Origin: a virus
Taxonomy: Duplodnaviria; Heunggongvirae; Uroviricota; Caudoviricetes
Direction: 5' to 3' (one strand)
DNA length: 34,281 bases
Virus record (IMG/VR): IMGVR_UViG_2703718815_000004
Shown here piece by piece: positions 32,475 through 33,705 of this stretch. The notes beneath the pieces are model-generated. The model was not told where the DNA came from and did not search any database. It saw only the letters and a program-made list of their open reading frames with translations. Every line of letters starts with the position of its first letter. Positions within the stretch are counted from its first letter, which is position 1. A program made the translations under genes and the position numbers.

Positions 32475-33371
32475 TTAAAATTCAATTTTTTGCGCTGGTC
32501 TTGCGTTTAATATCCAGCATTCTTGATGGGTGTGGTGCGCAATCAATAAGTTTTGGAGTTGAGTTTTTTTTGCCTTATAATTTAACTTATTTGTCGTATC
32601 AACTATCCAATTCCCCGTCCCCGAAGAAGCCAGAGCCATGAGTTTATTACATTCTGCATGGATATTAATTATCTCACCAAACATATCTGTTTTTGTTTTT
32701 TTATTCACAAGGTTAGTAAAAATACCCGCATGCTTATAGGAATCCATTACGGTATAACGGCCGTCACCATCTATATCAGACGGTTCCGACATCCATTTAA
32801 AAACATGAAGGAGAAAAATATTGGCTGGCCAAGGAAATTCATTCCCGTCAAGAAACGTTTCAGTAGTCCCTATACTCAGGCTTTCAGTAAGATTAGTCGC
32901 CCCAATTAAAATAACTTCAGGTTCACCATCCTTTCTTTTACCCGCTCCAACAAAATTGAATGTACCTGCATAACACTGCCCAAGATAAACAATAGCATTG
33001 TTTAAATTAGGCGTTCCTTTTAAAGCTTTAAGAAGTTGATGAGGCGGAATAGGATTTTTTGCATCGAGCCCTTGTGGGCAACCATGACCAGTAACAAACA
33101 TAACTATATTACTGTAGTTATTATCATGCAAGTCATTAAAAAATTCTGCTGATGCTTTCGACGTATAAGGATACTTCGAGGCTGATGAAAAAAAACCATC
33201 TAAATTTCTGTTAGGGCTGTCAATATATATTGATATATCTTGGGGGTTTATACCAGCCTTCTCAAGGCATAGCACACCAAAAACAATATCAAAAACGTGG
33301 CGCGGCTCAACCTCTTCTTTAGAACAAGGCAAAAACATAACCCATTTTGTACGCTCAGACCTAAGGCTCAT
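32475..33371 (-). CDS. Caspase-like (clan CD) cysteine-peptidase-fold protein, hypothetical
   Basis: 298 aa. Hydrophobic strand + His-Gly (NIVMFVTGHG), then about 37 residues later hydrophobic strand + Gln-Cys (AIVYLGQCYAG); order and spacing match the His/Cys dyad of caspase/legumain/gingipain-type peptidases. Motif-based inference; AT-rich. Confidence 0.5.
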   Translation of the reverse strand: MSLRSERTKWVMFLPCSKEEVEPRHVFDIVFGVLCLEKAGINPQDISIYIDSPNRNLDGFFSSASKYPYTSKASAEFFNDLHDNNYSNIVMFVTGHGCPQGLDAKNPIPPHQLLKALKGTPNLNNAIVYLGQCYAGTFNFVGAGKRKDGEPEVILIGATNLTESLSIGTTETFLDGNEFPWPANIFLLHVFKWMSEPSDIDGDGRYTVMDSYKHAGIFTNLVNKKTKTDMFGEIINIHAECNKLMALASSGTGNWIVDTTNKLNYKAKKTQLQNLLIAHHTHQECWILNARPAQKIEF

Positions 33372-33408
33372 ACATATCCTTATGATTCGAATGTGTTAAA
33401 TTGAAAAT

Positions 33409-33705
33409 TTATAAATATTCAGGAAACATAGCATTACTGAAAGATGGTGGTTTTGGTAAATCAATAAAGTAAAAAAGCTCATCTATGCTTAAATGCTCAG
33501 TAATTTGCGTGGGCGTTATTTGTCCTCTTTCATTCAAACCAAATATTTCATCGTCAGTTTTCAGAAAAAACACCACTTCAAATGTTGTGGTTACTTCATG
33601 CGCATAAGATTTGAACAGCATCCACTGCCCGAGATTCACACACTCTTTTACTGAATCAGAAGTATCAGGTAACGCCGAGGACTGTAGCCCTGTGAATTTC
33701 ATCAT
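33409..33705 (-). CDS. Small hypothetical protein (98 aa), co-oriented partner of the caspase-like gene
   Basis: Ends 37 nt upstream of the caspase-like gene start; no recognisable motif; AT-rich. Confidence 0.45.
   Translation of the reverse strand: MMKFTGLQSSALPDTSDSVKECVNLGQWMLFKSYAHEVTTTFEVVFFLKTDDEIFGLNERGQITPTQITEHLSIDELFYFIDLPKPPSFSNAMFPEYL

Follow-up and report, generated by a model that had tools for sequence, protein, structure and literature searches.

The question raised by this 34,281-nucleotide stretch of viral DNA (IMG/VR record IMGVR_UViG_2703718815_000004; hereafter the window or prophage window, to which coordinates refer unless another locus is named) is what function is carried by two AT-rich genes located directly upstream of the type I toxin gene hokD, the site where the Qin prophage of Escherichia coli K-12 harbors the toxin–antitoxin (TA) pair relBE. 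An initial annotation had read the two genes as encoding a small protein and a caspase-like peptidase of clan CD, and had proposed a TA, defense or effector module. This interpretation is supported as far as computation goes. The two genes form one self-contained, horizontally mobile operon, which encodes a predicted cytoplasmic, legumain-like cysteine peptidase and a small partner protein. Tentatively, with a probability of about 45%, the pair is a TA-like or abortive-infection-type module in which the peptidase is the effector and is held in check by its partner.

The 98- and 298-residue open reading frames (ORFs) and the 37-nt gap that separates them on the minus strand were confirmed (Table 1), and homologs of both proteins, along with a match of the small one to phrog_30138 (E 2e-61), a PHROG of unknown function, show that these genes are real. 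An AAGGA ribosome-binding site lies in the spacer, 7 nt ahead of the peptidase ATG. Elsewhere, the spacer measures 4–56 nt, while in distant Bacteroidota-type loci the genes are directly adjacent. As homologs of the partner begin at the second Met (MKFTGL...), the window copy would start at 33702 and comprise 97 residues. The AT-rich character of the cassette was also borne out, with a G+C content of 0.371 in its core (32401–33810) vs 0.479 for the whole window and 0.49–0.51 for the flanking genes. The gene order (tail, head, terminase, lysis, Q-like antiterminator, nin-type genes, hokD, cassette, replication genes) identifies the window as the late and early-right part of a lambdoid-type prophage, with the cassette inside the early-right (nin) transcription unit, and 99.9% identical DNA was found in E. 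coli P393-F10 and STEC005.

The fold of the large protein was assessed on an AlphaFold2 model built with 40 homologs (predicted local distance difference test, pLDDT, 92.4; predicted template modeling score, pTM, 0.87). The model contains the alpha/beta/alpha sandwich that defines clan CD, with a central sheet as in caspases, legumain and gingipain. In a Foldseek search against the PDB, it retrieved human and plant legumains, peptide asparaginyl ligases and PIGK at E 3e-9 to 1e-6, caspases coming next, and in a viral structure library the caspases of giant viruses were the only matches. Similarly, the family profile matches plant asparaginyl endopeptidases (AEPs) at E 1.4e-4. In this alignment, T8-x-W10...R24-H25-x-x-D28 falls on the legumain TRW...RHQAD ('TkWvlfL..s...RH..D' vs 'TRWAVLVAGS..NYRHQAD'), G-H96-G on the catalytic His motif and G-Q-C133-x-A-G on E-A-C-E-S-G. 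The window protein itself misses the cut-off of the Pfam model PF01650 Peptidase_C13 (13 bits, E 0.076, residues 82–138, vs 22.8), and nothing functional was returned for it by PADLOC, NCBIfam or PHROGs. Pfam C13 is nonetheless matched by 15 of 40 relatives at E <=0.1, the best at 2.8e-6.

Because the protein lies below the Pfam cut-off, yet its relatives and family profile match C13 and AEPs, it probably belongs to a divergent sister group of C13 and would work like a clan CD cysteine peptidase. It is not filed as a standard legumain since it is devoid of the secretory features and of the full Asn pocket. The clan CD assignment made initially was thus retained, whereas its caspase (C14) flavor gave way to a C13/legumain-like one: membership in C14 was rejected because legumain, AEP and GPI8 scores are higher and C13 is the sole Pfam model matched. 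An unrelated identity, such as a papain-like enzyme or an effector of a type III secretion system, was rejected as well, as no confident similarity of this kind was found and the fold is that of clan CD. It must be stressed that the fold assignment as such is not new, a few relatives being already annotated automatically as 'caspase family protein' or 'Peptidase C13 family protein'.

The His-Gly...Gln-Cys arrangement pointed out initially was recovered with its motif and spacing, the Cys being residue 133 instead of ~134. H96 and C133 are 37 residues apart, in VMFVTGH96G and IVYLGQC133YAG, and each closes a hydrophobic strand. When conservation was counted over 256 full-length family members, C133, G97 and G136 proved invariant (256/256), followed by D28 (254/256), H96 (252/256), S164 (248/256), R24 (240/256), an acidic residue at position 22 (E or D in 235/256), which is the position of the third catalytic residue of legumain, and H25 (216/256). 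Such conservation of the active-site residues indicates that the family is under selection as active enzymes. R24 and H25 are the equivalents of the Arg-His pair that lines the S1 pocket of legumain.

Outside the active site, the protein departs from legumain (MEROPS C13, clan CD), which possesses a secretory signal peptide and an LSAM prodomain. Here, the protein of 298 residues has no signal peptide, nor room for one, since residue 8 already sits on the first core strand of legumain in the profile alignment. Its C-terminal 90 residues are modeled as a two-helix hairpin (~208–280) followed by a short strand, and contain a conserved HQECWILN..PAQ segment. This hairpin and HQECWILN tail presumably replace the death-domain-like LSAM prodomain. 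Conversely, an EF-hand-like loop and an obligate small partner gene are features of the window peptidase and not of legumain. In this loop, D199, D201, D203 and D210 are kept in 253–255 of the 256 members; a relaxed 12-residue EF-loop pattern is found in 233 of them and the strict PROSITE pattern in 4. Its helix-loop-helix setting was derived with DSSP from the AlphaFold2 model, and the loop may bind a metal, likely Ca2+.

The small protein has 88 homologs of ~90–105 residues, and no Pfam domain was detected in any of 35 aligned sequences. While it had initially been described as having no recognizable motif, this description did not survive alignment, which makes visible the conserved pattern SVKECVN.G.W.LFK...FYFSD.P.P.SLSN. 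The N-terminal half carries L-P-D-x-x-D-S-V-K-E-C-V-N-x-G-x-W-x-L-F-K, and the C-terminal part F-Y-F-S-D-x-P-x-P-x-S-L-S-N, after which the sequence becomes variable. At least 90% of the aligned sequences have Asn91, and of 107 unique sequences, 92 contain S-x-S-(E)-N and a few others S-L-G-N or T-I-S-N. This Asn is always followed by 2–13 non-conserved residues, mostly 3–4 or 6–7, the first of which (P1') is usually A, T, S or M. The AlphaFold2 model of the partner is poor (pLDDT 58.7); in this low-confidence model, residues 82–84 and 90–98, which include N91 and the variable tail, are disordered (pLDDT <50).

The C13 enzymes closest to the peptidase perform cleavage or transpeptidation after Asn, or act on a C-terminal omega site with a removable tail. 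Because the Asn is conserved, the tail never absent and the relatives act after Asn, the partner tail is suggested to enter the active site as a substrate, a slow substrate or a pseudosubstrate.

The co-occurrence of the two genes, which the initial annotation had proposed to analyze, was examined with profile hidden Markov models of both proteins over every fetched locus. Among loci from genomes or assemblies, all 27 distinct ones in which upstream sequence is available and the peptidase gene is intact at its N-terminal end have the partner gene immediately ahead of it on the same strand, and so do all 25 IMG/VR viral contigs that could be tested. Pairing also holds in the distant Spirochaete, Muribaculaceae and Melainabacteria versions. 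The sole peptidase copy without a partner is a truncated, frameshifted Caballeronia pseudogene (locus L019). Likewise, none of the 88 partner sequences was found away from the peptidase or with any other neighbor, the contigs being shared with peptidase matches. Moreover, the pairwise identity matrices of partner and peptidase are correlated across 26 pairs (Mantel r 0.90, reached by 0 of 5000 permutations) and across the 22 proteobacterial pairs alone (r 0.86). This correlation and the pairing in every testable locus imply that the two genes are inherited and diverge as one unit.

The fold, the conservation of the catalytic residues, the strict pairing with its shared phylogeny, and the nature of the pair as mobile, patchy and AT-rich cargo are established by these data, and a mechanism can be proposed from them. 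The large protein would be an active, cytoplasmic legumain-type (C13) cysteine peptidase relying on a Cys133/His96 dyad and on acidic residue 22, and equipped with the EF-hand-like loop. The partner would keep it inactive by placing its flexible C-terminal tail in the substrate cleft, as a pseudosubstrate or a slowly cleaved substrate. Upon loss, titration or cleavage of the partner, for instance when another phage infects the cell or when the element is lost, the peptidase would be freed, cut cellular or phage proteins and stop growth, the pair acting as TA or abortive-infection cargo. Inhibition by the tail, toxicity of the free peptidase and protection against phages are thus predictions of this mechanism. 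The layout of the pair is that of type II TA modules, i.e., adjacent co-directional genes, the small one first, on mobile DNA of patchy distribution.

The decay of the pair bears on this proposal. In E. coli strain 0-4 (L057 606–2302) and STEC409 (L058 606–2302), independent insertions of IS1B and IS1A, respectively, at different sites, in different orientations and in different cassette types, interrupt the peptidase gene and leave the partner intact. Similarly, in one viral contig and in one Duganella metagenome-assembled genome (MAG), the peptidase gene is frameshifted next to an intact partner. The peptidase gene has therefore been broken alone in four independent cases (IS1B, IS1A and two frameshifts), while no broken partner beside an intact peptidase gene was found among the loci examined. 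The sole partner-truncated allele is a decayed but widespread E. coli version in which a DUF7167 gene is fused in frame to partner residue ~30, replacing the first ~30 codons, and its peptidase gene also has a 1-nt frameshift, at codon ~252. Peptidase-only decay is what would be expected if the free peptidase were harmful. This pattern is only suggestive, because the numbers are small and the peptidase gene is a target three times larger.

An alternative is that the partner is the substrate of the peptidase, matured or ligated after Asn91, the variable tail being removed and the new C-terminal Asn joined to an amine, which would amount to protein tagging. Such a role, which would parallel those of GPI transamidase and the plant peptide asparaginyl ligases, is unlikely. 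At P2', R, A, S and P predominate, whereas plant ligases favor hydrophobic residues, the neighborhood contains no conserved acceptor or third gene, and the acidic residues by which legumain recognizes Asn are not conserved in the family. In addition, that the peptidase alone was lost repeatedly is easier to explain for a costly enzyme than for a maturation factor. In its most elaborate form, this idea makes the pair a legumain/GPI-transamidase-type system for tagging proteins in the bacterial cytoplasm: the tail would be removed, and the ~90-residue partner transferred through its Asn onto amino groups of phage or host proteins, this conjugation being possibly gated by Ca2+ through the EF-hand-like loop. 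This form is improbable.

A further observation was made on the partner. When its profile was compared with the PDB, only beta/gamma-crystallins were retrieved, all 19 of 19 matches being sub-threshold (E 0.11–0.74). The alignment covers partner residues ~12–49 (33559–33672), on the Greek-key motif 'V.sG.W.LYe...yFL..G', and was not confirmed by Pfam. A partner–crystallin link is hence a lead and not a finding, of interest only in view of the EF-hand-like loop of the peptidase, since microbial crystallins bind Ca2+.

A second alternative is that the partner is a sensor or an activator of a latent peptidase, responding to a phage component or to a Ca2+ signal, much as caspase-like proteases of other bacterial immune systems are switched on by adaptor or sensor subunits. 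Besides the near-universal loop and the fact that the partner resembles, if anything, crystallin motifs of the Ca-binding type, such a role would be in line with the mobile-element and defense-island contexts described below, and with legumain itself, in which the region C-terminal to the catalytic domain auto-inhibits the enzyme in cis. It is nevertheless quite unlikely. The crystallin likeness is not significant (E >=0.1) and goes unseen by Pfam, the model of the partner is poor, and the loss of an activator would be harmless, yet the partner is never lost alone, albeit in a small sample.

Returning to the preferred reading, in which the partner restrains the peptidase, the distribution of the family is that of mobile cargo. 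A word-indexed search retrieved 236 homologs of the 298-residue peptidase, with E down to 1e-204, and an exhaustive profile search of 1.84 billion cluster representatives yielded 271 clusters at 50% identity, 237 of them at E <=1e-10. Almost all are 280–320 residues long, of uniform architecture and without fusions. Members are found in Enterobacteriaceae, Vibrio, Shewanella, Pseudomonas, Xanthomonas, Lysobacter, Burkholderia, Cupriavidus, Bordetella and Chromobacterium, more distant ones in Spirochaete, Muribaculaceae and Melainabacteria MAGs. The E. coli peptidase shares 45–50% identity over its full length with betaproteobacterial members (~48% between Escherichia and Burkholderia). This high identity for such a spread, together with the patchy occurrence, indicates horizontal transfer. 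The pair is carried by 28 IMG/VR viral contigs, and a DNA search of isolated phage genomes with the cassette gave no match.

In E. coli, the cassette is rare, being present in 13 of 5426 complete genomes, and exists as three sequence types (100%, 92% and 73% DNA identity). The main cassette is always directly upstream of hokD in lambdoid prophages. The hok-like gene that follows the pair was verified, its ORF (32059–32271, minus strand) matching Pfam PF01848 HOK_GEF (E 8e-22) and containing the hokD coding sequence annotated in near-identical genomes. The arrangement cited for K-12 Qin is equally correct, the annotated MG1655 record giving relB-relE-hokD in that order and orientation. A hok locus is present in 4712 of the 5426 genomes, and what lies upstream of hokD varies: relBE, a DUF4209 protein, a 326-residue protein of unknown function, small unknown ORFs or the end of the prophage. 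As its content differs among strains, this site is a variable cargo slot, and hokD is a neighbor that marks the slot, outside the two-gene unit. The DUF4209 and 326-residue genes are possibly further uncharacterized cargo of the hokD hotspot.

Away from this slot, versions of the pair with ~60% identity reside in nin regions of other enterobacteria, without hok. A paralogous pair of E. coli (51% identity) occupies an accessory region of phage-satellite-like elements, which also encode an integrase, AlpA, DUF4222, a D5-type primase and Clp-protease/capsid fusions, with a HEPN-like gene nearby in some copies. In Leclercia, the pair is a chromosomal islet adjoining symE; in Burkholderia, it is flanked by a small serine recombinase (resolvase) and an integrase; and on a Muribaculaceae MAG contig, it immediately precedes a Dit-like phage tail gene. 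In Pseudomonas fragi, its neighbors are SIR2-HerA (E 1e-181 and 1e-278) on one side and, on the other, the candidate system PDC-M60, whose genes encode a Y4jQ-like protein of 1097 residues, a response-regulator-like protein and a 398-residue protein. What these loci have in common is that the pair forms a self-contained, mobile islet of two genes, carried in many but not all cases by prophages or satellites.

A last alternative is that the pair serves the phage or a pathogen, as a counter-defense protease, a factor setting lysogeny or lysis timing, or a virulence factor of prophages that also bear toxin genes in enterotoxigenic (ETEC) or Shiga toxin-producing (STEC) E. coli. Indeed, most E. 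coli carriers are ETEC or STEC isolated from livestock and patients, the cassette is transcriptionally part of the early-right region, and the same prophage carries an AB5-type ADP-ribosyltransferase toxin locus. However, the peptidase has no secretion motif or signal peptide and begins at the first strand of the fold; the family extends to Burkholderia, Pseudomonas, Xanthomonas, Lysobacter, Vibrio and uncultured gut and soil bacteria; and many copies are located outside phages, among housekeeping genes. For these reasons, this is the least likely reading. Of the three labels proposed initially, TA and defense remain circumstantial: some contexts are mobile elements or a defense island, but the neighbors at several loci are all housekeeping or unknown genes. 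Effector is the least likely label, given that the peptidase leaves no space for a signal peptide and that the family extends across bacteria of soil, plants and water.

Several results weigh against a TA-like or abortive-infection-type module. Arg44, His45, Glu187, Ser215 and Asp231 are the S1 residues by which legumain selects Asn. Equivalences beyond the profile alignment were drawn by manual motif alignment. Of these S1 positions, R24, H25 and S164 are conserved in the family, but the acidic ones are not: G131 takes the place of Glu187, and the residue preceding W181, at the position of Asp231, varies, so that Asn specificity of the peptidase is not assured. The decay pattern is not significant, as four out of four hits in a gene three times larger correspond to p ~0.3. 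The partner is without a DNA-binding domain (Pfam on 35 sequences; no solved DNA-binding relative), unlike type II antitoxins. Ten neighbors in six other loci gave no PADLOC defense match, and a Pfam scan of a largely overlapping set recognized two housekeeping proteins (PDH E1 and an M13 peptidase). An ORF beside the Lysobacter locus was read as RecQ by its N-terminal sequence alone, unscored by the tools. Since the other neighbors gave no defense match, the association with defense islands amounts to one clear case plus mobile contexts. Neither the 50,697 isolated phage genomes nor the 72,556 plasmids searched contained a tblastn match to the peptidase. Finally, no model of PADLOC v2.0.0 (2023) matches either protein at E <=1, and no description of the pair was found in literature on legumain, C13 or asparaginyl endopeptidases in connection with phage defense, prophages or abortive infection, in line with the initial annotation, in which the pair was not recognized as a described system.

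Table 1. Positions of the genes, motifs and comparison loci discussed in the text. Positions are those of the window unless another locus is named.
Feature	Sequence	Position	Strand	Description
Small partner gene	Window	33409–33705	minus	ORF, 98 residues; phrog_30138 match; homologs ~90–105 residues
Partner motif S88-F-S-N91, codons	Window	33433–33444	minus	Conserved C-terminal Ser-x-Ser-Asn
Partner variable tail A92–L98	Window	33412–33432	minus	Follows N91
Intergenic spacer	Window	33372–33408	minus	37 nt; read directly from the sequence
Peptidase gene	Window	32475–33371	minus	298-residue legumain-like (clan CD, C13-like) cysteine peptidase, predicted cytoplasmic
R24-H25, codons	Window	33297–33302	minus	Equivalents of the legumain Arg-His pair in the profile alignment
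Catalytic His96, codon (G95-H96-G97)	Window	33084–33086	minus	atg, reverse complement cat; aligned with legumain 'SNHGGPG'
Catalytic Cys133, codon (L-G-Q-C133-Y-A-G)	Window	32973–32975	minus	aca, reverse complement tgt; aligned with legumain 'YLEACESG'
EF-hand-like DxDxDG loop, D199-I-D-G-D-G-R-Y-T-V-M-D210	Window	32742–32777	minus	Predicted Ca2+ (metal) site, between helices 185–195 and 208–249
hokD coding sequence, type I toxin gene	Window	32059–32214	minus	Last 51 codons of the Hok/Gef ORF; annotated so in near-identical genomes
Putative upstream control region	Window	33762–33823	minus	Promoter-like site TTGACG-18-TATATT (33823–33794), then stem-loop (33789–33762)
DUF7167-fused decayed allele	L054	4001–5189		E. 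coli GCA_018683755.1 and >20 other contigs
Slot cargo, 595-residue DUF4209 protein	L046	3351–5138	opposite strand	E. coli CB7453
Slot cargo, 326-residue hypothetical protein	L049	3404–4384		E. coli 042; beside an integrase fragment
Satellite paralog pair	L026–L031	7680–8891		E. coli and metagenome contigs
P. fragi-type defense island	L039	874–13057		PLD-like gene, SIR2-HerA, pair, three-gene PDC-M60

Upstream of the partner gene, the -10 box of the promoter-like site and the stem arms persist in the cassette variants of 92% and 73% identity. In a consensus scan, promoter-like sites upstream of the partner gene were no commoner than in shuffled sequence (4 vs 5.3); the promoter-like site is therefore weak evidence, and no promoter is claimed. 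The stem-loop, with a core CTGTGTGG...CCACACAG of 8–12 bp and a U-rich tract, lies between the prophage backbone and the partner gene. Its arms are preserved across the three cassette variants while the loop varies, and it could be a terminator of nin-region transcription or an element of the 5' untranslated region. A 27-codon hydrophobic ORF, MTWPEAFTTVGIAMAVALVVYSICRWG (33820–33903, minus strand), overlaps the stop of the upstream gene, which encodes 119 residues. Because its DNA is still ~97% conserved next to the cassette variant of 73% identity, this ORF is assigned to the prophage backbone, and it delimits the cassette on the right.

Other features of the prophage window were recorded, all on the minus strand. 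The AB5-type toxin locus (27630–28848; G+C content 0.35–0.39) lies between the Q-like antiterminator region and the holins. It encodes a 241-residue pertussis-S1/scabin-like ADP-ribosyltransferase (28123–28848; Pfam PF02917, E 4e-15) and a 160-residue protein (27630–28112) annotated as a subtilase-family AB5 binding subunit in near-identical genomes. At 24009–25725, the gene of a 317-residue TET-associated glycosyltransferase (PF20691, E 1e-35) overlaps that of a 263-residue ParB_N-like protein (PF02195, E 2.5e-6), two kinds of genes that are linked to phage DNA hypermodification, here in an E. coli prophage. An ORF6N-domain protein of the antirepressor type (29249–29809; PF10543, E 6e-17) is located in an 834-bp stretch that the otherwise near-identical prophage of E. 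coli P393-F10 does not have at this position.

Comparison with known systems helps to situate the pair. GPI transamidase (PIGK/GPI8) and the peptide asparaginyl ligases (butelase-1, OaAEP1 and VyPAL2) share the fold of the peptidase, whereas no acceptor, membrane complex or cyclic-peptide precursor is evident here, and the partner tail does not conform to the known tail preferences of these ligases. Bacterial caspase-like proteases, such as the gasdermin-associated ones, TPR-CHAT (Craspase) and SAVED-CHAT, belong to the C14/CHAT branch, while the present enzyme is C13-like. They are paired or fused with SAVED, TPR, NACHT or a gasdermin substrate, none of which is found here. The relBE pair of Qin occupies the same slot directly upstream of hokD and is, like this one, a two-gene operon with the small gene first. 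There is, however, no relation in sequence or fold: RelE cleaves RNA in a ribosome-dependent manner and RelB is an antitoxin that binds DNA, in contrast to a peptidase and a partner without a DNA-binding domain. A functional likeness may be drawn with Lit, a single-gene zinc metalloprotease of the defective lambdoid prophage e14, which is triggered by the Gol peptide of phage T4 and targets EF-Tu. Both would be prophage-borne proteases acting on cellular proteins when triggered, the present one being a cysteine peptidase with a partner.

To our knowledge, the protease-based immune or addiction modules of bacteria have so far involved caspase/CHAT, Lon, metallo- or serine proteases. If the proposed mechanism is true, a legumain-type enzyme controlled with a small partner would add a new enzymatic branch to these modules, and would, for the first time, place the scattered bacterial 'C13-like' proteins, annotated only as hypothetical, in a functional context. 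If the Asn tail of the partner is a substrate, the pair would supply a compact cytoplasmic Asn-specific protease or ligase together with a recognition tag for engineering, and, were protein tagging true, a ubiquitin-like or sortase-like conjugation chemistry new to the bacterial cytoplasm or to bacterial immunity. For genome annotation, these data show that lambdoid prophages have a variable cargo site just ahead of hokD. The peptidase family is small, sharply bounded, very well conserved and always paired, which makes it an easy test system.

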